Assembly (NCBI GenBank): GCA_016176405.1 | Contig: JACOXG010000012.1 | Span: 2,217 to 66,216, forward strand | From: Candidatus Daviesbacteria bacterium | GTDB taxonomy: Bacteria > Patescibacteriota > Microgenomatia > Daviesbacterales > UBA10151 | Length of the DNA: 64,000 nt | Direction: 5' to 3' | Shown: piece by piece, positions 3,469 through 49,700 of the stretch | Numbering within the stretch: the first letter of the stretch is position 1 | Layout of the letters: each line of letters begins with the position of its first letter | The notes under the pieces: model-generated | Database searches by the model: none | What the model saw: the letters and a program-made list of their open reading frames with translations, nothing else | What the model was told of the DNA's origin: nothing | Position numbers and translations under genes: made by a program

Positions 3469-3592
3469 AATTCGAATTTCGAATATCGAAGCTCTAAACA
3501 AATTCAAAATTCGAATGTTTAAAATTTTGAAAATTTGAATTTAGATATTGTTTCGGATTTCTTATTTCGAATTTACGACTGAAAAGGAGTAT

Positions 3593-4060
3593 ATGCCAAC
3601 CATTAACCAATTAGTCAGAAAAGGCAGAAAAAAGATCTATAAAAAAGTTAAAGCAACTGCCTTAAGAAGGAGCTTTAATGCTAAAGATCGAAGATACACT
3701 CTTGAGTTTAATCCCCAAAAGCGGGGAGTGGTCACTTTGGTTAAAACCATGACCCCCAAAAAACCTAATTCAGCTTTAAGAAAAGTAGCCAGAGTCAGAT
3801 TATCTAACAAAACTGAGGTGACTGCTTATATTCAAGGTGAAGGTCATAATTTGGCAGAACACGGCATAGTTTTGGTCAGAGGTGGTAGAGTTAAAGATTT
3901 ACCAGGTGTAAAATATCATCTGATTAGGGGTAAGCTTGATTTGGAAGGAGTGGTGGGTAGGAAAAAGGGCAGATCAAGATATGGTACTAAAGCAGGCGGA
4001 CCTGCAGCCGTACCAAGACCAGTGGCTCAACCTGCTCCAGCTCCGGAGGCAGCGTCATAG
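3593..4060 (+). CDS. rpsL: 30S ribosomal protein S12, with a ~20-aa Pro/Ala-rich C-terminal extension
   Basis: [12 protein letters not shown]...[19 protein letters not shown] is canonical S12. The ATG at 3593 sits 5 nt after a GAAAAGGAG SD. The upstream TTG at 3548 was rejected. The tail [20 protein letters not shown] is atypical. Confidence 0.9.
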
Positions 4061-4798: not shown

Positions 4799-4826
4799 CA
4801 GTACAACACTGTGCCACTATCATTTA

Positions 4827-4844
4827 AAATGATTCAAATCATTT
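4827..4844. promoter_or_regulatory. 18-bp inverted repeat AAATGATT-ca-AATCATTT (candidate operator), copy 1, overlapping the start codon of the YerC-like gene
   Basis: Two perfect 8-bp arms with a 2-bp spacer. The identical 28-mer ttaaaatgattcaaatcatttaaacaaa recurs at 5301-5328. Confidence 0.5.
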
Positions 4845-4850
4845 AAACAA

Positions 4851-5300
4851 ATGACACAGGTCTCAAGATACCCAATTTCCAAAGAGGTTTATGAAAGATG
4901 CTGGGAAATATTTGTAAAGACTTTAATAGGGATTCACAATGTCAAAGATGCTGAGATAGTTATTAATGATTTGCTAACCCCTACCGAACGGATCATGTTA
5001 GTAAAAAGATTAGCAACAGCATTACTTTTAATGCAGGGATATGAATATCGAGAAATTAGCAAAGTTTTAAGAGTCAGTCTGCCAACCATATCCGCAGTTA
5101 ACAGATCTTTAAGATATGGCAGTAATGGTTACAATAAAGCACTTTCTAAAATCTTAAAAGATGAACAGTTTGCAGAATTTCTTAATAAAATGATCCAAGG
5201 CATAATTGCTCTGCCAGCTCGAGGGGGGATAGGCTCGGGAACGTATAGGTATCTTAGACAAGAACTCCAGAAAAGGTCAAAAGACAGAAAAGCCTTCTAG
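4851..5300 (+). CDS. YerC/YecD (TrpR-like) family HTH DNA-binding protein
   Basis: LLTPTERIMLVKRLATALLLMQGYEYREISKVLRVSLPTISAVNRSL matches the Trp-repressor-like YerC family signature. The gene is bracketed by identical 28-bp repeats at 4824-4851 and 5301-5328. Confidence 0.6.
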   Translation: MTQVSRYPISKEVYERCWEIFVKTLIGIHNVKDAEIVINDLLTPTERIMLVKRLATALLLMQGYEYREISKVLRVSLPTISAVNRSLRYGSNGYNKALSKILKDEQFAEFLNKMIQGIIALPARGGIGSGTYRYLRQELQKRSKDRKAF

Positions 5301-5303
5301 TTA

Positions 5304-5321
5304 AAATGATTCAAATCATTT
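5304..5321. promoter_or_regulatory. 18-bp inverted repeat AAATGATT-ca-AATCATTT (candidate operator), copy 2, upstream of the histidine-phosphatase gene
   Basis: Identical to copy 1. It lies immediately after the YerC-like stop codon and 17 nt before the next ATG. Confidence 0.5.
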
Positions 5322-5338
5322 AAACAAAGTGAAAAAAA

Positions 5339-6256: not shown

Positions 6257-8368
6257 ATGGCAGTACTTAAGACTAAAAGAGACTTTCCCTTAGATAGAAT
6301 CCGCAACATGGGCATTATTGCTCACATTGATGCTGGAAAAACTACCACTACTGAGAGAATCCTTTTTTACACAGGTAGAACCTATAAAATTGGAGATATT
6401 GATGAGGGCACAACAGTCACAGATTGGATGGAGCAGGAAAGAGAAAGAGGAATTACTATTGTTTCTGCAGCCATTACCACTTTTTGGAAAGATACCAGAA
6501 TTAATTTGATTGATACCCCAGGTCATGTTGATTTTACAGCTGAGGTAGAAAGAAGTTTGCGTGTTTTGGATGGAGGAGTGATTGTTTTAGATGCCTCATC
6601 AGGAGTCCAATCTCAAACAGAAACTGTGTGGAGACAGGCCAATAAATATAAAGTACCACTTATTGCTTTTGCCAATAAAATGGATGTGGTAGGGGCAGAT
6701 TTTATGGGCACAATTAAATCTGCCAGGGATAAACTTGGTGCTAATGCTTTGGCCTATAACCTGCCTATTGGTAAAGAGAATGATTTTAAAGGAGTTGTAG
6801 ACCTTTTAACCCAGAAAGCTTTTATTTGGGAAGGGGATGAAACAGGAGCTAAATTTAGTGAGATAGAGATCCCCTCAGATATGGCTTCGCAAGTAAAAGA
6901 AGCCAGGGAAAAATTGGTTGAGGAAATTTCTGGCACAGATGATCAATTAATGGAAAAATTCTTGGGTGGACAGGAAATTTCCATAGAAGAGCTTAAAAAG
7001 GCTTTAAGAAAAGCAGTGATTGAGAATAAAATTGTGCCTGTTTTAGCAGGATCCTCTTTAAGAAATAAAGGTGTTCAACCAATGTTAGATTGCGTGGTGG
7101 AATATTTACCATCGCCTCAAGATATTGCTGAGGTAGTTGGCCAAAACCCTAAGACTTCTGAGCAAGAAACAAGAAAGGCTGATCCGGCTGCATCTTTGGC
7201 TGCCCTTTCTTTTAAAATTCAAGTTGATCCACATGTGGGAAAACTAACCTATATCAGAGTTTATTCAGGAACATTAAAGAGTGGTTCCTATGTTTACAAT
7301 GCCACCAAACAAATTAAAGAAAGAGTGGGCAGACTACTTTTAATGCATGCCAATGATAGGGAGGAAATTGAGGAGGCTTTTGCTGGTGAGATTGTGGCAG
7401 CAGTAGGTTTGAAAGATACTGTTACTGGGGACACTCTCTGTGATGAAAATGCGCCAATTATTTTGGAATCTATTACTTTTCCTGATCCGGTGATTTCTTT
7501 AGCCATTGAACCCAAAACAAAATCTGATCAGGAAAAATTGGGTTATGCTTTAAATAGATTATCTGAGGAAGATCCGACTTTTAGAGTCAAATCTGATGCC
7601 GAGACTGGGCAAACAATCATTGCTGGCATGGGTGAGCTGCAATTGGAAATTTTGGTGGAGCGGATGAGAAGAGAATTTAAGGTGGAGGCCAATGTTGGTC
7701 AACCCCAGGTGGCTTATAAAGAAACCATTACCCAAAATGCAGAGGGTGAAGGTAAATATATCAGACAGACTGGGGGAAGAGGACAATATGGTCACTGTTT
7801 GCTTCGAATTGAACCTTTACCTCGGGGACAGGGAAGAGAATTTGTCTCAGAAGTGGTTGGCGGTGCTATTCCCAGAGAATTTATTCCTCCAATTGAAAAA
7901 GGAGTGATTGAAAAAGAAGATACGGGAATTTTGGCTGGATATCCGGTGACTGATATAAAAGTAGTAGTTTATGATGGTTCTTTCCATGATGTTGATTCAT
8001 CAGAAATTGCTTTCAAAATTGCTGCTTCTTTAGGTTTATCAGAGGCTGCTAAAAAAGCAGAGTTAATACTTCTTGAGCCTATTATGAAGGTGGAGGTGAC
8101 TACTCCTGAGGATTTTATGGGAGATATTATTGGAGATTTGTCCTCAAAAAGGGCTCAGATTTTAGGGACAGAAAAAAGAGGAAATTACACAGTCATTTTA
8201 GCTTTAGTACCCTTGGCAGAAATGCATGGATATGCTACAGCTTTAAGATCAATGTCCGAAGGAAGAGCCTCATATTATATGGAAGCAGATCATTATGAAA
8301 CAGTGCCCCAAAATATCACTCAAAAAATAGTTGAGTCCTCAGGCTTTACAGGTAGAGTAGAAAGGTAA
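6257..8368 (+). CDS. fusA: elongation factor G
   Basis: 703 aa. [31 protein letters not shown] GTPase motifs and domains II-V are conserved. Confidence 0.95.
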
Positions 8369-12768: not shown

Positions 12769-13052
12769 TGTCCAGAAGTACAAAAAAGGGTCCGTATATT
12801 GATGAAAAATTGATGAAAAAGGTGCAAGCTCAAAAAGCTTCTGGCAAAAAGGAGCCAATTAAAACTTGGGCTAGATCCTCGCAGATTCCGCCAGAGTTTG
12901 TTGGTCATACTTTTTTAGTCCATCAGGGCAAAAATTTTGTTTCTGTATATGTCTCTGAATCTATGGTCGGACAAAGATTGGGAGAATTTGCCCCAACCAG
13001 AATTTTTAGAGCACATGGAAAAGTGACAGAAAAATCTACGGCGAAGACGTAA
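12768..13052 (+). CDS. rpsS: 30S ribosomal protein S19
   Basis: [19 protein letters not shown]...[30 protein letters not shown] is canonical S19. Confidence 0.93.
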
Positions 13053-13061
13053 GATTTATAA

Positions 13062-13116
13062 GGACCTGATGCCCTCGCAGTATGGGATATTATACTGCTC
13101 GGTCATCAGAACCTTG
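13062..13116 (+). repeat. family-2 hairpin repeat, copy A (intergenic rpsS-rplV)
   Basis: ggaCCTGATGccctCGCAGTATgggatattATACTGCtcggtCATCAGaacctt. Nested perfect inverted repeats. Shares termini ggacctg...cagaacctt and loop atatt with copy B. Confidence 0.7.
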
Positions 13117-13137
13117 TAATTTTGTAGGAACAAAATT

Positions 13138-13494
13138 ATGGAAGCACAAACAATACAAAAATATATACACAGTAGCCCTCGGAAATTGAGGTTAGTAGCA
13201 GATATGGTGAGAGAAATAGAGCCCGCAAGGGCTTTGGATATTTTAACAATCACCCCAAAATCTGCTGCCAAAGATTTGTCTTCTGCCATCAGAACTGCTT
13301 TGGCCAATGCTAAACAAAAGGGTTTAGATGAAAGTAAAGTCACTTTCAAAAAAATTGAGATTAATGAAGGAACCAAGATGAAAAGGTATCGAGCTGGTGC
13401 CAGAGGAAGGGCTAAACCATATGCTAGAAGAATGAGCCATATCAAAATAGTGTTGAGTGATGAGAAAGGAGAAGTAGGTGGGACAAAAGATTAA
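13138..13494 (+). CDS. rplV: 50S ribosomal protein L22
   Basis: MEAQTIQKYIHSSPRKLRLVADMVRE...ALANAKQKGLDESKVTFKKIEINEGTKMKRYRAGARGRAKPYARRMSHIKIVL matches L22. Confidence 0.92.
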   Translation: MEAQTIQKYIHSSPRKLRLVADMVREIEPARALDILTITPKSAAKDLSSAIRTALANAKQKGLDESKVTFKKIEINEGTKMKRYRAGARGRAKPYARRMSHIKIVLSDEKGEVGGTKD

Positions 13495-14119
13495 CCCGGT
13501 TGGTTTTAGAATGGGCATTGGTACAAGCTGGCAATCACGCTGGTTTGCTACTGATAATAAATACAAAGAATTTATTGCTGAAGATCTAAAAATTAGAGAA
13601 CTGTTGATGAAAAAACTTCGTCCAGCAGGGATTGGCAAGATAGAAATAGAAAGGTCAAGCAATAAAGTGAAAATAATTATTCATGTGTCTCGCCCAGGAG
13701 TATTGATTGGTAGAGGAGGTACTGGACTGGAGGAACTGAAAAATTTCTTGATGAAAAATTTAAACATTAAAGATAAGAATTCTTTGGAGGTAGTGCCTAT
13801 GGAAATTAGAGCTTCTGATTTATCTGCATATCTGGTGGCTCAATCAGTGGCTGAACAACTGGCCAAAAGAATGCCTGCTCAAAGGGTAATGAATCAAACT
13901 GTAGAAAGAGTAATGAGAGCAGGAGCCAAAGGAGTGAGGGTGGTTTTATCCGGCCGTATTGGTGGAGCAGAAATAGCCAGACGTGAGTGGAAGGCCAGAG
14001 GGACCATGCCCCTCCATACTTTAAGAGCAGATATTGATTTTGCTGTATATCCTGCCCTGACCAAATCCGGTTATGTGGGAGTAAAGGTTTGGATTAATAA
14101 GGGTGAGGTTGAGATATGA
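13478..14119 (+). CDS. rpsC: 30S ribosomal protein S3
   Basis: GTG start after an AAAGGAG SD. MGQKINPVGFRMGIGTSWQSRWFA...KH domain...LIGRGGTGLEELK. Overlaps the rplV 3' end by 17 nt. Confidence 0.92.
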   Translation: MGQKINPVGFRMGIGTSWQSRWFATDNKYKEFIAEDLKIRELLMKKLRPAGIGKIEIERSSNKVKIIIHVSRPGVLIGRGGTGLEELKNFLMKNLNIKDKNSLEVVPMEIRASDLSAYLVAQSVAEQLAKRMPAQRVMNQTVERVMRAGAKGVRVVLSGRIGGAEIARREWKARGTMPLHTLRADIDFAVYPALTKSGYVGVKVWINKGEVEI

Positions 14120-14182
14120 TAACCTCACCCTTGCCTTTTTGGCTTCGCCAAAAACGTAAAGGAGAGGTAGAAAGGTAAAATT

Positions 14183-14599
14183 ATGGCTTTATTGCAACCA
14201 AAAAGAACTAAATACAGAAAAACTTTTAAAGGTGTCAGAACTGGGATAGCCACCCGTAGTAATAAATTGGCCTTTGGTACTTTTGGCCTCAAAGTAATGG
14301 AAGCTGGTTGGATCTCAGCCAGACAACTAGAGGCAGCAAGAAGAGCCATGGCTCACTTTACTCAAAGAGGTGGACGTATTTGGATTAGAATTTTTCCTGA
14401 TAAACCCATTACCAAACATCCAGCAGAAAGTAGAATGGGTTCTGGTAAAGGTGATGTGGAAGGGTATGTGGCTGTGGTCAAAAGAGGACAATTAGTTTTT
14501 GAAATGGGAGCAATTGATAGAGGGGTAGCTCAGGAAGCATTAAGGTTGGCTGCCCATAAATTACCGGTAGCTACTAAATTTATTGAGAAAGGTGAGTAA
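14183..14599 (+). CDS. rplP: 50S ribosomal protein L16
   Basis: [56 protein letters not shown] matches L16. Confidence 0.93.
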
Positions 14600-14603
14600 T
14601 TTT

Positions 14604-14888
14604 GTGAAAAAACGAGAATTGACACAAATTAAAAGTTTACCAGTCAAAGAGCTAATTTTAAAAGCAAAAGCCATCAAAGGAGAAATAGCAAATTTAGTGA
14701 TTGATAAAAATATCAAAAAGTTAAAAGATACCAGATCTATTTTTAAAAAAAGAAAAGATTTGGCTCAGGTTTTAACAATTATCAGGCAAAAACAATTACT
14801 TGAAAAATTAGAATCTAGAGTCGAGAGTCAAGAGTCTAGTAAAGAAGTGTCAAAAGCTGAAACAAGAAAGGAGAAAACTAGTCTCTAG
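14604..14888 (+). CDS. rpmC: 50S ribosomal protein L29 with a C-terminal Lys/Glu/Ser-rich extension
   Basis: ELTQIKSLPVKELILKAKAIKGEIANLVID...LAQVLTIIRQK matches the L29 fold. A GTG start at 14604 follows a GAGAAAGGTGAG SD. An alternative TTG at 14583 overlaps rplP. Its tail contains a 35-nt repeat shared with recX. Confidence 0.75.
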   Translation: MKKRELTQIKSLPVKELILKAKAIKGEIANLVIDKNIKKLKDTRSIFKKRKDLAQVLTIIRQKQLLEKLESRVESQESSKEVSKAETRKEKTSL

Positions 14889-14911
14889 ACTCTAGCGACT
14901 AGTCACTACTT

Positions 14912-16002: not shown

Positions 16003-16020
16003 GTTGAGCGGACTCATGAA

Positions 16021-16090
16021 GGAGATCCTTCGACTCGCTTCGCTCGCTCAGGATGACAACAAAAGTTTAGAAATTATACTTTTGTTGTCA
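16021..16090 (+). repeat. family-1 palindromic repeat element, copy 1 (intergenic rplX-rplE)
   Basis: ggagatccttcgactcgcttcgctcgctcaggatgaca + hairpin TGACAACAAAAGT-ttagaaattata-ACTTTTGTTGTCA. It ends 1 nt before the rplE start. See 22077-22181 and 47786-47854. Confidence 0.8.
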
Positions 16091-16091
16091 A

Positions 16092-16637
16092 ATGACCATG
16101 AACAGACTTAAAGACAAATATCTAAAAGAAGTACAGGCTAAATTACAACAAGAACTGGGACTAAAGAACAGATTGGCCATACCCCGTTTGGATAAGATAG
16201 TCATCAGTATAGGTCTGGGAGAGGCCAAAGACAACAGTGGCATTTTAGATAAAGTTAAAATTTATTTGGCTGCTCTGGTTGGACAACAACCTGTTATAAC
16301 TTATGCTAAAAAATCTGTTGCTACTTTTAAAGTTTCTAAAGGTCAACCTATTGGGATGATGGTGACTTTAAGAGGTGATAAAATGTTTGCCTTCTTGGAT
16401 AAGTTAATTAATATTGTTTTACCCAAGGTGAGAGATTTTAAAGGTATCTCGGAAAAGTCCTTTGATACTCAAGGGAATTTAAATATTGGACTAAAAGAAC
16501 AGATTATTTTTCCTGAGGTAGATTATAAAGCAATTGATAAAGTGAGAGGTCTGGCTGTTACCATTACCAGCACTGCCAAAAATAAAGAGGAAGGGAGAAA
16601 ACTTTTAGAGGCATTGGGAATGCCGTTTAGGAGTTAA
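16092..16637 (+). CDS. rplE: 50S ribosomal protein L5
   Basis: [42 protein letters not shown]...[31 protein letters not shown] matches L5. Confidence 0.93.
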
Positions 16638-19085: not shown

Positions 19086-20373
19086 TATATTACAACCAAT
19101 TTTAACTGCTTTTAAAATTGCCGAACTAAGAAGAAAAATTTTTATCACTATTTTGATTGTGGTAATTTTCAGAATTGTGGCTCATATTCCTGTTTCAGGA
19201 ATTGATTTGGTGGGACTGCAAGCGCTGTTTGCTTCTAATCAACTGCTAGGGCTTTTAGATATTTTCTCAGGTGGTACTTTGGTCAACTTTTCAGTAATTT
19301 CTTTAGGGCTTAATCCCTACATTAATGCTTCTATCATCATGCAACTTTTAACCATGATTATGCCCAAGCTGGAAGCTTTATCCAAAGAGGGAGAATATGG
19401 CAGACAAATTATTACTCAATACACCAGATATTTGACAATACCTTTGGCAGCTATTCAATCAATTGGGATGTTTGTACTTTTGAGAAATCAGGGATTACTA
19501 CCGGAAGTTTTACCTATTCAGATTGCGGCAATTGTGGTAGGGATGACTGCGGGAACTATTTTTTTAATGTGGTTAGGGGAACTTATCACTGAATATGGAA
19601 TTGGTAATGGCATTTCACTTTTAATTTTTGCAGGAATTGTCACCAGAATTCCAGTTGTTTTGACCCAGACTGCCACAGTTTTTGACCAGACTCAACTGTT
19701 TAACATTTTACTTTTTGCCATCTTTTCTATTTTGGTGATTGCCGCAGTGGTTTTTATTAATGAAGGCAGAAGACAAATTGCCGTGCATTATGCCAGAAGA
19801 TTTATGAGCGGTCGAGAGGGTATTGGTGATAAGACTTATTTGCCACTACGAGTTAATCAAGCTGGAGTCATCCCAATTATTTTTGCTGTTTCTTTGGTAT
19901 TAATCCCCTCGTTTGCAGGATCATATCTTGCTCAACTTCCCACCACTCAACTTAATTTTTTGGGAAGATGGCTCTCTCAAAACTTTACCCCCGATGGCTT
20001 CACTTATAATTTAGTTTACTTTTTATTAGTAGTTGGTTTTACCTTCTTTTATACGGCAGTCATTTTTAATCCGGCTAAAGTTTCTGAGGAAATTAAAAAA
20101 TATGGCGGATTTATACCCGGTATCAGACCGGGTACCCAGACAGCTGCTTTTCTAAGTTATATTATGGTCAGAATTACCTTGGCAGGAGCTTTATTTTTGG
20201 GCGCAATCGCCATCCTACCTTCAATTGCGGCTGGTCTGACTGGGGTAACAACTTTAATTTTAGGAGGAACAGGGCTTTTGATTGTGGTGTCAGTGATTAT
20301 GGATACTGCTAAACAATTTGAAAGTAAACTTGTGGAGAAAAGTTATGAAGTTTTTGCCAGAAGAAGGTTATAA
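19078..20373 (+). CDS. secY: preprotein translocase subunit SecY
   Basis: The ATG at 19078 lies 10 nt after an AAAGGAGG SD and overlaps the rplO stop. [26 protein letters not shown]. Ten TM segments. Plug motif [27 protein letters not shown]. Confidence 0.92.
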
Positions 20374-20406
20374 GGACTAAAGTCTTTGCGATCCTTCGGA
20401 TCTAAA

Positions 20407-20468
20407 GGACCTGCTCGCACTTCACTATGGAATATTATAGTTCGTGCTCGCAGAACCTTGCCTTTTTA
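20407..20468 (+). repeat. family-2 hairpin repeat, copy B (intergenic secY-adk)
   Basis: ggacctgCTCGCACTTCACtatggaatattataGTTCGTGCTCGCAGaaccttgccttttt. Matches 13062-13116 and the reverse complement of 49591-49645. Confidence 0.7.
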
Positions 20469-20507
20469 ATTCTAAGGCAATTATATTTTTAAGGAGGAAT
20501 TAAAAAC

Positions 20508-21038
20508 GTGAAAATACTTTTTATTGGTCCGCAAGGTTCAGGGAAATCAACTCAAGCCAAACTATTGGCTAAATATTTAAAGATTACTTATCTCTCAACT
20601 GGGGATATTTTCCGAAAGATATCTTTGGAGAAAAGTAGCGCAGAAGGACAAAGAATTAGACATCTTTTGGAATCTGGTCATTTGGTTGACGATGAAACAA
20701 CGGCTGAGATTGTTAAAAAAAGAGTCACAGAGGAAGATTGTCAAAATGGGTTTATTTTAGATGGTTATCCTAGAAATTTAAATCAAGTTCAGTTATTTGA
20801 TCCGGGTTTTGACCAAGCCATTTTTTTAAATGTACCAGCAGAACAAGTAATAGAGAGATTAACCAAAAGAGGAAGAGCAGATGATACCCCAGAGCTAATT
20901 AAAAAAAGATTAGAGCTATACTTTAATGAAACCCAACCTATCTTAAATTATTATCGAAAGCTAGGCAAGTTAATTGAGATTGATGGTCAAGGAGAAATAG
21001 ATCAAATACAAAATAAGATTAGAGATGAAATCTCGTAA
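20508..21038 (+). CDS. adk: adenylate kinase (short form without zinc LID)
   Basis: GTG start after an AAGGAGG SD. ILFIGPQGSGKSTQAKLLAKYL...FILDGYPRNLNQVQ. Confidence 0.9.
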   Translation: MKILFIGPQGSGKSTQAKLLAKYLKITYLSTGDIFRKISLEKSSAEGQRIRHLLESGHLVDDETTAEIVKKRVTEEDCQNGFILDGYPRNLNQVQLFDPGFDQAIFLNVPAEQVIERLTKRGRADDTPELIKKRLELYFNETQPILNYYRKLGKLIEIDGQGEIDQIQNKIRDEIS

Positions 21039-22076: not shown

Positions 22077-22181
22077 GTCATCCTGAACGAAGTGAAGGAT
22101 CTGATTACGAGGGAGATCCTTCGACTCGCTTCGCTCGCTCAGGATGACAGAAAAATTTAAGAAATTATAATTTTTCTGTCA
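22077..22181 (+). repeat. family-1 palindromic repeat element, copy 2 (intergenic infA-rpmJ), long form with extra inverted arm
   Basis: tgtcatcctgaacgaagtgaaggatc ...gatccttcgactcgcttcgctcgctcaggatgaca + hairpin TGACAGAAAAATT-taagaaattata-AATTTTTCTGTCA. Confidence 0.8.
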
Positions 22182-22188
22182 ACTAACA

Positions 22189-22305
22189 ATGAAAGTACAA
22201 GCAAGTATTAAAACAAGATGTAAGTTTTGCAAAATCGTTAAACGCGAGGGTATCTTGTACGTGATCTGTCCAAGAGATCCAAGACACAAGCAGAGACAAG
22301 GATAA
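22189..22305 (+). CDS. rpmJ: 50S ribosomal protein L36
   Basis: Manual translation gives [38 protein letters not shown] (38 aa). It is below the ORF-track cutoff. Canonical position between infA and rpsM. Confidence 0.88.
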
Positions 22306-30012: not shown

Positions 30013-30060
30013 TTTATTGGCAAAATATGTTGTTTAAATGATTTAAATCAATGGAACAAT

Positions 30061-34096: not shown

Positions 34097-34774
34097 ATGC
34101 CCAAAATTACCTCAGTTGAACCTCAGAAAAAAACCCTTAGACTTCGCTCAGGGCAAGGTCCGCACAGATTTAATATTTTTTTAGATGGAGTGTTTGCTTT
34201 TGGGGCAGATGAGGATTTGGTGGTAGAAAATAGGTTAGTGGAGGGAAAATTACTTGACACATCCGATGTGGAACAGCTGTTATTTGAGGCAGAGGTAGGA
34301 AAATTGATGGAGAAGATGTATGGACTTTTTAATATCAGACAAAGATCTGAAAGAGAAGTCAGGAATTATTTTAGAGTCAAGAATCTAGAATCTAGAATCA
34401 AGGGTAAAGAAGAAATAAGCGATTTAGCAATTGAGTTAGTTATTAAAAAGTTAAAACAAAAAAATCTAATAAATGATGAGGAATTTGCCAAAGCTTGGGT
34501 AGAATCAAGATCCAGAAAGTATGGCATAAATAGAATAAAACAGGAACTTTTTCAAAAAGGGATTAATAGAGAAATTATAGAGGAAGTGACTAGAGTCGAG
34601 AGTCTAGAGTCTAGTGAAGAAGTGGCCCAACAACTTTTGGAAAAGAAGATGAGAGTATGGAAAGATTTACCAATTTTAGAATTTAAAAAGAAAGCTTATG
34701 AGTTTTTAATGAGAAGGGGTTTTGAGTTTGAAGTAGTTAAGGCTGTTGTTGAAAAATATCTTAAAAAAGAGTAA
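34097..34774 (+). CDS. recX: recombination regulator RecX
   Basis: Lies immediately downstream of recA. Three-helix repeat architecture ...INDEEFAKAWVESRSRKYGINRIKQELFQKGINREIIEEV...KAYEFLMRRGFEFEVVKAV. Confidence 0.75.
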   Translation: MPKITSVEPQKKTLRLRSGQGPHRFNIFLDGVFAFGADEDLVVENRLVEGKLLDTSDVEQLLFEAEVGKLMEKMYGLFNIRQRSEREVRNYFRVKNLESRIKGKEEISDLAIELVIKKLKQKNLINDEEFAKAWVESRSRKYGINRIKQELFQKGINREIIEEVTRVESLESSEEVAQQLLEKKMRVWKDLPILEFKKKAYEFLMRRGFEFEVVKAVVEKYLKKE

Positions 34775-47233: not shown

Positions 47234-48226
47234 GTGAATACTAAAATATTAACTATTTTAGGTCCTACTGCAACAGGTAAAACTGACCTAGCCTTAATGG
47301 TGGCAAAAAAATTTAATGGAGAGATTATTTCTTGTGATTCCAGACAAGTTTATAAGGGCTTGGATATCGGCACGGGAAAAATGCCAAATGCCAAATTACA
47401 AATTACAAAAGGAGATAGCTTTTGGGAAATAAACAGCATAAAAGTTTGGATGTATGATATGGTGGATCCAAAAAAAATATATTCTGTGGCGGATTATGTT
47501 AAAGATGCAAATAGGGTAATTGGGGAAATTAAGGATAGAGGAAAGTTGCCAATTATAGTTGGAGGTACAGGACTTTATTTAAGAGCCTTACTGGAAGGAT
47601 TAGATAGTCTTTCAATACCAATTGATAAAAAATTAAGAACTGAGCTACAAAAACTTTCATTAGTTGAGCTTCAAGAAAAATTACAGGAGGTAGATGCTAA
47701 AAAATGGAAGAAAATGAATGACTCTGACAGACAGAACCCAAGAAGGTTGGTAAGAGCTATTGAATTGGCTTTGTCAAATCATGTGGGAGATCCTTCGGTC
47801 GCTACGCTCCCTCAGGATGACAAACTGCGTTTAGAGATTATACGCAGTTTGTCAAATGTGCTAAAGGTTGGTCTAACTGCGCCAAGAGATGTCCTTTATA
47901 AAAGAGTTGATGAGCATGTGGTTTTTAGAATTAACCAAGGCATGATTGATGAGGCAAAAAGACTTTATAAAAATAGTTTAAGTTTAAAAAGGATGAGACA
48001 GCTTGGTTTGGAATATGGAGTTTTGGCAGATTATTTAGAGGAAAAAATTAAAAGTAAAGAGGGCCTAATTAAAATCTTGCAGCATAAAATTCATGGCTAT
48101 GTCAGACGTCAACTGACTTGGTTTAAAAAAGAAAAAGAGGTAAATTGGTTTGATATTTCTGATCAAGATTATATTAAGAAAATAGAAAAATTAGTCAGCA
48201 TTTGGTATGATCAATCCATAGAATGA
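47234..48226 (+). CDS. miaA: tRNA dimethylallyltransferase, carrying an in-frame family-1 repeat insertion
   Basis: LTILGPTATGKTDLALMVAKKFNGEIISCDSRQVYKGLDIGTGK P-loop. Residues GDPSVATLPQDDKLRLEIIRSLSN are encoded by repeat copy 3. Confidence 0.88.
   Translation: MNTKILTILGPTATGKTDLALMVAKKFNGEIISCDSRQVYKGLDIGTGKMPNAKLQITKGDSFWEINSIKVWMYDMVDPKKIYSVADYVKDANRVIGEIKDRGKLPIIVGGTGLYLRALLEGLDSLSIPIDKKLRTELQKLSLVELQEKLQEVDAKKWKKMNDSDRQNPRRLVRAIELALSNHVGDPSVATLPQDDKLRLEIIRSLSNVLKVGLTAPRDVLYKRVDEHVVFRINQGMIDEAKRLYKNSLSLKRMRQLGLEYGVLADYLEEKIKSKEGLIKILQHKIHGYVRRQLTWFKKEKEVNWFDISDQDYIKKIEKLVSIWYDQSIE
47786..47854 (+). repeat. family-1 palindromic repeat element, copy 3, in-frame inside miaA
   Basis: ggagatccttcggtcgctacgctccctcaggatgaca + hairpin TGACAAACTGCGT-ttagagattata-ACGCAGTTTGTCA. 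The stem is fully compensated relative to copies 1 and 2. Confidence 0.8.
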
Positions 48227-49206: not shown

Positions 49207-49565
49207 GCCTAGGAAGAAGGATGATCACCCCGCACCAATCTGGTGCGGGGAGGAAAGTCCAGACAGCACAGGGCAGGGTGGTTCGGGTAACCGGACTCGG
49301 GTAACCGCAAGTAAAGAGTAACAGAGACGATCTGGGTGACGCCAGGTGAAACGACCAAGTGACTGGGTATTCGATAAGCAAAGGGCTATCAGTCCTGAGC
49401 GAAGTCGAAGGACAATCCTCCCCGCTGCAATCCTAGAAACAATCGAGCTGCTCGCTCAATGATTGAAGTCAGGAGCAGTCGCCTAAGGCGACTCAGGATG
49501 ACAAAAATCATACTGAAGATAAATGATCATCTAGAAACAGAATCTGGCTTACTTTTTTCCTAGGC
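49207..49565 (+). ncRNA. rnpB: RNase P RNA (bacterial type A-like)
   Basis: P1 GCCTAGGAAG...CTTTTTTCCTAGGC. P3 CCCCGCACC-aatc-GGTGCGGGG. P4 GGAAAGTCC. ACAGGGCAGGGTG. ...ACAGAATCTGGCTTAC 3' P4 strand. Contains a ~130-nt segment with family-1-like arms. Confidence 0.75.
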
Positions 49566-49590
49566 AATTTTTTTGCCGACGGAAAAAAGC

Positions 49591-49645
49591 AAAGTTCTGC
49601 GAGCGTGAAGTAAAATATTTAATACTGAAGCGCGAGCAGGTCTTT
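49591..49645 (-). repeat. family-2 hairpin repeat, copy C (minus orientation, downstream of rnpB)
   Basis: The reverse complement aaagacctgctcgcgcttcagtattaaatattttacttcacgctcgcagaactttgc aligns with copies A and B. Confidence 0.65.
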
Positions 49646-49700
49646 ACTATCTTCCTAGGCATTCGCATTAGGTTTAGCGCTGCCCCGTATATACTACTCA

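Follow-up and report, generated by a model that had tools for sequence, protein, structure and literature searches.

The REP and BIME elements of enterobacteria are short, imperfect extragenic palindromes, dispersed through the genome and transcribed within operons, where they can protect the upstream mRNA. REPs come in hundreds to a genome, clustered and in either orientation; their position bears no fixed relation to start codons, and RAYT transposases go with them. The Correia/NEMIS repeats of Neisseria, ERIC and the pneumococcal BOX, RUP and SPRITE repeats are small, non-autonomous and co-transcribed with the genes beside which they lie; they form long hairpins and can alter RNase III or RNase E processing or mRNA stability, or supply promoter elements, and they have terminal inverted repeats, fixed short target duplications (TA for Correia) and either orientation. 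Other hairpins, namely the RNase III sites of T7 early mRNAs and the 5' stabilisers of ompA, ermC and cryIIIA (STAB-SD), set mRNA ends and half-life. RNA thermometers of the fourU and ROSE types, together with leaders that present or mask the Shine-Dalgarno sequence (SD), have a U-run that pairs near the ribosome-binding region. Finally, attC sites have the core consensus R''/R' RYYYAAC / GTTRRRY and are found in cassette arrays with an integrase nearby.

The element analysed here, referred to as family 2, was found in a stretch of 64,000 nucleotides from a Candidatus Daviesbacteria genome (the window). Like REP and BIME elements it consists of short, imperfect, dispersed extragenic palindromes, but it is low-copy, strand-specific and two-part, and it can carry an SD and a start codon. 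Unlike Correia, ERIC and BOX repeats, it follows the orientation of the downstream gene, and compensatory change keeps its structure across species. By structure alone, its first hairpin can be likened to the T7 and 5'-stabiliser hairpins, being irregular, about 50-60 nt long, interrupted by internal loops and intercistronic or 5'-terminal, whereas its sequence signature is unrelated to theirs. With intrinsic terminators it shares a hairpin followed by a U-run, and one variant in the window looks like a terminator, but the base of the stem is weak, a GCC spacer intervenes and the U-run pairs with a downstream A-run. A weak AU-rich helix beside the start codon also recalls fourU and ROSE elements; in family 2, however, the partner of the U-run is not the SD itself but an A-run on its 3' side, tRNA genes are served too, and no temperature logic is evident. 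We know of no counterpart in which a stabiliser hairpin is coupled to a U-run/A-run hairpin with an SD and a start codon.

Results

Three full copies and a variant in the window

A preliminary description, made from the letters of the window, had reported three intergenic hairpins with a shared framework. All three were recovered at the places given, with adjustments of a few nucleotides, and each proved to be the first hairpin (HP1) of an element that continues 3' into a second one (HP2). The parts, with the kind of evidence in brackets, are as follows.

13060-13115, + strand: HP1 of copy A, AAGG / AC / CTGATG .. CATCAG / AA / CCTT (sequence, fold, covariance model)
13116-13140, + strand: degenerate HP2 of copy A, TAATTTTGT-AGGA-ACAAAATTA (UAAUUUUGU-AGGA-ACAAAAUUA) (sequence, fold)
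14099-14157, + strand: variant D, hairpin AAGGGTGAGGTT/AACCTCACCCTT (18.5 bits, termini only)
20371-20404, + strand: partial copy of the element's 5' end (TTATAAGGAC) 5' of copy B, containing the secY stop codon, and the 27-nt insert behind it
20405-20459, + strand: HP1 of copy B, AAGG/AC/CTGC/TC/GCAC/TTC/ACTAT-loop-ATAGT/TC/GTGC/TC/GCAG/AA/CCTT (sequence, fold, covariance model)
20460-20510, + strand: long-class HP2 of copy B, GCC-TTTTT-AATTC ... AAGGAGG GAATT-AAAAA-C-GTG
49645-49591, - strand: HP1 of copy C, with an AAAG/CTTT base (sequence, fold, covariance model)
49567-49590, - strand: short-class HP2 of copy C, GC-TTTTTT-CC-GTC-GG-C-AAAAAAA-T, without the usual CGT tail
49644-49661, - strand: left flanking direct repeat of copy C (TGCCTAGGAAGATAGTAA), a duplicate of the 3' P1 strand of RNase P RNA (z 5.3)

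Chance would give 0.07 occurrences of the framework GACCTG-N25-50-CAGAAC in the window; there are three, a number reached by none of 100 dinucleotide shuffles. A covariance model of 25 family members (R1) likewise found exactly three full copies, scoring 77.6, 76.2 and 77.0 bits for A, B and C, with the next forward-strand match at 18.5 bits. The flanking genes had also been named correctly: S19 and L22 for copy A, SecY and Adk for copy B (Pfam), and RNase P RNA at 49209-49567 for copy C (Rfam).

Copy A starts 8 nt past the rpsS stop codon (13050-13052); the loop of its HP2 is a Shine-Dalgarno-like AGGA and the 3' foot is the ATG of rplV (13138; L22 ORF 13138-13494). The HP2 of copy B provides both the SD of adk (20491-20497) and its GTG start (20508-20510), and its distal pairing has a z of -2.6. 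A T-tract behind copy B and a GATCC-TTC-GGATC mini-hairpin before it are present as had been described. The mini-hairpin sits in a 27-nt insert that follows TTATAAGGAC and precedes the real AAAGGACCTG; read from the sequence, AAGGAC on either side of this insert suggests a secondary insertion into copy B. The mini-hairpin also has a likeness to the beginning of another repeat of the window, family 1. Copy C converges on rnpB (49209-49567, + strand) and has no co-oriented downstream gene.

Membership of the three copies stands, and a fourth locus with a short hairpin, variant D, had been overlooked. The conserved coding end of rpsC (..NKGEVEI*) forms the 5' arm of its hairpin, behind which come a canonical short HP2 (GCC-TTTTT-GGCTTCGCC-AAAAA-CGT), an SD and the rplP ATG at 14183. 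Relatives without the variant D insert have an identical S3 C-terminus, ..VKVWINKGEVEI*.

HP1 is a covarying hairpin folded on the written strand

HP1 is an irregular hairpin of about 55 nt. Its 4-bp base, AAGG/CCUU, is followed by an invariant AC/AA internal loop (2x2) and then by a CUG(C)/(G)CAG helix. The middle helices are variable, covary and are parted by pyrimidine (UC/UC) internal loops, and the AU-rich apical loop ends in AUUnUA, which is nearly invariant also where the search pattern left the loop free. Copies A, B and C fold alike, at -30.3, -19.1 and -18.0 kcal/mol (z of -6.7, -3.6 and -3.2 against dinucleotide shuffles), and the AAAG/CUUU base of copy C is a compensatory G-C to A-U change.

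Covariation was assessed on a plain MAFFT alignment of 75 sequences, not fitted to the structure. The stems contained 90 double-change cells against 34.3±4.4 in shuffled data, a value reached by none of 500 shuffles; the covariation score was 0.209, compared with 0.107 in shuffles and at most 0.10 in slid controls, and 85% of cells were paired in the named structure against at most 48% with the partners slid. The variable inner 36 nt, whose mean pairwise identity is 63%, folded better than dinucleotide shuffles in 74 of the 75 sequences (mean z -2.5). The preliminary description had proposed a structured repeat family whose termini and loop are conserved and whose stems covary; covariation and the folding of the inner part now support this statistically.

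Single subfamilies provide further examples of compensation. Three HP1 copies of one subfamily lie 5' of epimerase-family genes in different genomes, and their apical stems are set apart by compensatory changes (GAGUU/AACUC versus GAGAU/AUCUC; L100, L123); these genes may be paralogues rather than orthologues. At L057 (165-234) the otherwise invariant CUG/CAG is replaced by CCG/CGG, again in a compensatory manner. G-U pairs number 73 on the written strand and 22 on its complement, which argues that RNA of the written strand is what folds, and not a DNA cruciform. The structure of HP1 is under selection, on the written strand.

Several other ideas about HP1 were discarded. A pairing between UAUAA in the 5' flank and UUAUA in the loop showed no covariation, the flank being invariant while loop position 44 varies. 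An ATG is frequent in the loop and unconserved, and any reading frame is broken by the unequal lengths of the copies, which speaks against coding potential. By-eye comparison with the GUAUAUUAC loop of the hairpin ribozyme, the K-turn, attC and SRP/4.5S RNA found that their defining sequence features misfit, and Rfam returned nothing for them. For attC in particular, GACCTG/CAGAAC does not agree with the core consensus, and the copies stand singly among core housekeeping genes.

A second hairpin carries translation signals

Directly behind HP1, a flank alignment of related copies revealed HP2, composed of GCC, U4-6, a stem-loop, A4-6 and CGU. The family is therefore a two-hairpin element of about 85-115 nt, and the extent first assigned to it, while correct for the hairpin, missed the second conserved hairpin, which extends as far as the following gene's start codon. 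The U-run is as long as the A-run in 61 of 65 copies (4/4 in 13, 5/5 in 43, 6/6 in four and 3/3 in one), and the inner stems of HP2 vary between copies yet stay complementary, that is, they covary.

HP2 falls into two discrete size classes. The 44 short-class copies (22-30 nt) have loops of three or four bases or, in a few cases, an AAAGGA loop; a start codon follows 3-39 nt further on, or else a tRNA gene. Many of these copies lack a recognisable SD close to the start. The long class (46-53 nt, n=18), to which copy B belongs, holds an SD (AAGGAGG or AAAGGAA) in the loop in 17 of 18 copies, and its distal pairing is significant in 17 of 18. The codon at its 3' foot is GTG in 16 of 18 copies and opens a long ORF in 12 of these, compared with 5 GTG starts among 130 called genes (4%) in four related ribosomal-protein (r-protein) regions (p about 3e-21), so that the start codon is part of the element. 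An alternative proximal fold or pseudoknot in the long HP2 was significant in 6 of 18 copies only and is left as a possibility.

HP2 was also considered as an independent module. A pattern scan for it gave 70 matches, 57 of them family-2 copies by pattern and one the variant copy at L057, which that pattern had missed; beyond family-2 copies and variant D, the matches were scattered and chance-looking (11 of 70), and the idea was dropped.

Distribution and novelty

The family is not confined to the window: about 75 further distinct copies occur in related genomes. A pattern scan with one genome per species yielded 99 stretches, of which about 65 are expected by chance; the full signature (TATAAGGACCTG..CAGAACCTTGCCTTTTT) was present in about 30, all of them from Candidatus Daviesbacteria/Patescibacteria MAGs or evidently mislabelled MAGs. 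A metagenome scan with the loop unconstrained gave 63 stretches, from groundwater-type samples. Together, Daviesbacteria-type genomes and groundwater metagenomes provided 75 distinct HP1 sequences. Several MAGs with the full signature (CAYLXC01, CAZXEW01, CAZWRN01, CAZZHC01, CAZKCV01 and OZ246414) are titled 'uncultured Gammaproteobacteria bacterium', and CAYLXC010000001 appears to encode an S19 that is 89% identical to that of the window; these labels are probably wrong and the MAGs Daviesbacteria-like.

Copy number is low, with three copies and one variant in the 64 kb of the window; the covariance model added only three copies, L057 among them, to those known from the patterns in 633 kb of related DNA and detected none in four r-protein regions of relatives, each of 14-20 kb. 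Sequence and structure are kept across species whose less conserved proteins are 54-78% identical. Two pattern matches on viral contigs were chance-like, GC-rich and without HP2, and a stricter pattern on viral contigs and BLAST of phage genomes gave nothing credible, so a viral or phage origin was rejected.

At the gathering threshold, Rfam 15 recognised only RNase P RNA and tRNA-Pro in the whole window. Searched in E-value mode, copy B had no match in HP1, the best hit (caiA, E = 0.46) covering the SD/start region only, and literature searches did not turn up a description of the element. We conclude that it is a lineage-specific, previously undescribed structured intergenic repeat or leader; its two-part design, element-borne translation signals and conservation across species through compensatory change are unusual.

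Orientation towards the downstream gene

Gene orientation around 76 distinct copies was scored with ORF heuristics rather than curated gene calls. The downstream ORF is co-oriented with the element in 58 and opposite in 7 of the 65 scorable copies, the upstream ORF co-oriented in 46 and opposite in 20 of 66; a downstream gene that is co-oriented, with an upstream one that is often opposite, argues that the element is not simply a terminator or a typical REP. The seven copies without a co-oriented downstream gene include copy C and L041, which converge on rnpB, and L158, which converges on a tRNA.

The upstream stop codon is the TAA of a conserved TAAGG in 10 copies. A gap of 4-14 nt parts the element from a canonical GC-rich terminator before it at L119, L144 and L112, leaving no room for a promoter. 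Strong sigma-70-like promoters lie just upstream of 9 of the 76 copies, compared with 3.5 in shuffles (examples are L065, L077, L031, L096, L084 and L140); the -10 hexamer of six of these nine ends 7-13 nt upstream of the first A of AGGACC, so that the transcription start would fall close to the base of HP1.

Downstream genes encode ribosomal proteins L22, L27 and L36, Adk, ATP synthase a, SerRS, a pilin, MiaB, PyrG, RecJ, NusA, NusG and an SbcD-like protein, and tRNA genes lie behind three copies (L130, L146, L157). Such diverse proteins, and tRNAs besides, do not form the one downstream gene class of a riboswitch, and this variety of functions argues against a gene-class-specific one.

Gain, loss and traces of insertion

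In relatives, the secY and adk genes either overlap (ATGA; L024, L167 and L169) or are 3 nt apart, and L167 and L168 have 6 or 20 nt between rpsS and rplV. Relatives thus lack copies A and B at the same junctions, which marks A and B as lineage-specific gains. Positional orthology, with A-type copies always at rpsS/rplV and B-type copies after secY, was rejected: related copies lie in quite different contexts, and four relatives have no copy at all in their r-protein operons. The same HP1 subfamilies recur in different gene contexts and genomes, and different HP1 subtypes are joined to the same HP2 subtype.

Flanking direct repeats accompany a few copies (3-4 loci) and end at the element's 5' boundary; most copies have none. 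The repeat at L094 matches in 15 of 15 nt and takes in the serS start codon, that of copy C and its L041 counterpart is 18 nt long and duplicates the 3' P1 strand of RNase P RNA (its partner in the window lies at 49549-49566, and the layout in L041 is the same), and those at L123 and L131 are 27-35 nt long and span the first 12 codons of the downstream gene. This variable length does not fit a classical transposase. In both Logan contigs with the window's adk (L165, L166) the first base lies 25 nt upstream of the GTG, within the long HP2, as would be expected of a repeat that breaks assemblies.

The stretches concerned around copy C, where the 3' P1 strand is duplicated on either side, are 49208-49221, 49549-49566 and 49644-49661 in the window and 3200-3640 in L041. 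With respect to the IPP-transferase and AI-2E-transporter genes, the block of rnpB plus element has opposite orientations in the window and in L041. An inversion between the GCCTAGGAAG inverted repeats would explain the flipped block.

Other repeats and genes nearby

The window contains further repeats. Family 1 (GATCCTTCGACTCGCTTCGCTCGCTCAGGATGAC plus a GACA..TGTC hairpin) is found at 16018-16102, 22109-22193 and 47782-47866, and in L169 at 3564-3697, 5172-5264 and 6615-6719; the rpsS/rplV, rplP/rpmC and rplX/rplE junctions of L169 hold a family 1 element instead. Family 1 has two hairpins that end just before an ATG at the same kind of intercistronic junctions, its second stem covaries, its apical loop (..AGAAATTATA..) is similar to that of family 2, and within it, on either strand, a consensus scan picks out strong promoter-like hexamers (10-11 of 12). 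Units of the CTAGAGTC/GAGAGTC type build up a third repeat, which occupies 14794-14849 and 14877-14907, near rpmC/rpsQ, as well as 34364-34624 (94% identity between 14815-14849 and 34590-34624), and a similar sequence fills the infA/rpmJ spacer of a relative (L170 20125-20193). The palindromic TTAAAATGATTCAAATCATTTAAACAAA forms a perfect 28-nt direct repeat at 4824-4851 and 5301-5328, immediately upstream of the consecutive ORF starts 4851 and 5339, with a 79% copy at 30033-30060.

Relatives also have extra genes within the conserved str/S10/spc cluster: a PhdYeFM/ParE toxin-antitoxin pair between fusA and tuf (L167 4643-5157), a gene for a 23S-rRNA-intervening-sequence protein before rpsJ (L170 6023-6403) and an unannotated ORF of 215 aa between secY and adk (L170 17669-18316).

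Discussion

The reading that we favour, to which we give a probability of about 0.45 with its mechanism inferred, takes the element for a portable module, a transcribed 5' leader or intercistronic segment, in which HP1 stabilises or processes the message and HP2 serves translation start. Either transcription starting just upstream or endonucleolytic cleavage of a polycistronic RNA would put HP1 at a message end, 5'-terminal in the downstream message or 3'-terminal in the upstream one, where it would act as a stabiliser, as a site recognised by a dedicated RNase or RNA-binding protein, or as both. HP2 would be transcribed together with the downstream gene and would organise translation initiation, the long class and some short copies presenting the SD in the HP2 loop and a GUG or AUG start at its 3' foot. 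The module would spread in cassette-like fashion between gene junctions through a process at the DNA level. Invariant nucleotides in the internal loops and the apical loop argue for a specific partner; mRNA stabilisation alone, which is common to any hairpin, leaves AC/AA, UC/UC, AUUnUA and GCC..ACGU unexplained. Against the leader reading stand the resemblance of HP1 plus GCC-U5 to a weak intrinsic terminator, the short-class copies without an SD, the seven copies without a co-oriented gene and the copies that abut a terminator.

That resemblance leads to the view that HP1 and the U-run act as a leaky intrinsic terminator or attenuator, throttling transcription and thereby tuning the downstream gene, which we regard as unlikely. 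A U4-6 run does lie 3 nt past HP1 in nearly all copies, the upstream stop codon is the element's own TAA in 10 cases, and variant D, a perfect 12-bp stem over the rpsC stop followed by GCC-U5, is the only copy flagged by a terminator consensus scan, which passes over A and B. The stem, however, has a weak base, 4 bp of AAGG/CCUU and a 2x2 loop, the GCC lies before the U-run, and the U-run, including the T-tract noted behind copy B, is the 5' strand of HP2, whose A-run matches it in length (61 of 65). Of 66 scorable copies, at least 20 follow a gene that points away from them, many such genes being ORFs of more than 550 nt, and 58 of 65 precede a gene in their own orientation; stops at rpsS/rplV or secY/adk would split conserved operons, and ordinary GC-rich terminators of a different design already precede the copies at L119, L144 and L112. 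The label 'terminator-associated' given in the preliminary description is weak in this light. A stand-alone small RNA gene, with the HP1+HP2 transcript as product, had been its other suggestion. The compact conserved structure would suit such a gene, as would the seven copies without a co-oriented gene behind them (copy C, L041 and L158 among them), and for these few it is possible; the majority do not fit, with 58 of 65 copies leading within 0-40 nt and no terminator into a co-oriented gene, a long class that contains the next gene's SD and start codon, and many copies that start at the upstream stop codon and leave no room for a promoter of their own. As an account of the family we hold it very improbable.

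Mobile DNA without a role at the RNA level, a selfish non-autonomous element of the REP, MITE or PATE kind whose conserved ends would be recognised by a transposase or recombinase and whose hairpins would reflect DNA structure, is also doubtful. It would account for the variable presence at orthologous junctions (secY/adk, rpsS-rplV), for HP1 subfamilies shared across contexts and genomes and combined with the same HP2 subtype, for the flanking direct repeats (L094, copy C/L041, L123/L131) and for contigs that break inside HP2. Yet the asymmetry of G-U over A-C, 73 to 22, is unexpected for DNA structure, and sequence and structure are conserved across species. The likeness to REPs extends to dispersal and to gain and loss between relatives; it ends with a low copy number (three extra in 633 kb and none in four r-protein operons), a fixed orientation (58 to 7 towards the downstream gene) and the tie to start codons, none of which is found in classical REPs. 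Nor do the ends (TAAGGACCTG.. and ..AAAAACGT) form inverted repeats as in a MITE, HP1 and HP2 being unrelated in sequence and not mutual inverted repeats, and the significant flanking repeats, at 3-4 loci, measure 15, 18 and 27-35 nt. Least probable of all is a promoter or operator at the DNA level, in which the ATTnTA loop and TTGCC would supply -10 and -35 elements or the arms would bind a dimeric regulator. On the opposite strand the loop motif reads TAnAAT and fits the most conserved -10 positions, and TTGCCT-N17/18-TATATT occurs inside the HP2 of some long-class copies; but no -35 is properly spaced from the loop motif, and covarying stems with a G-U bias indicate a folded strand rather than a protein-binding duplex. 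An internal promoter of the form TTGCCT .. TAnnnT was rejected, the distance from TTGCCT to the next TA.. (18-24 nt) tracking HP2 length and the presumed -10 being unconserved. The small-RNA and promoter or operator readings may still apply to single copies such as C.

A joint reading, a lineage-wide cistron punctuation signal with an unusual insertion process, is conjectural and has, in our estimate, a low probability. A dedicated Daviesbacteria RNase or RNA-binding protein would read AC/AA, UC/UC and AUUnUA, polycistronic RNAs would be cut or protected at gene boundaries, and translation would begin from the element-borne SD and GUG. Spread would take place by insertion, possibly of an RNA intermediate, into TAA-type sites such as stop codons, and would leave target duplications of variable length.

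Post-transcriptional control is scarcely known in bacteria of the candidate phyla radiation, which are uncultured. A covarying motif, absent from Rfam, now stands 5' of many essential genes of one such lineage, a group of ultra-small groundwater bacteria, for ribosomal proteins, ATP synthase, NusA, NusG and tRNAs among others. For annotation, the element predicts adjoining GUG starts and gene boundaries, and it would account for assembly breaks. It offers a testable handle on mRNA processing, mRNA stability and translation initiation in these bacteria; if mobile, it would be a rare insertion element that carries its own translation signals.
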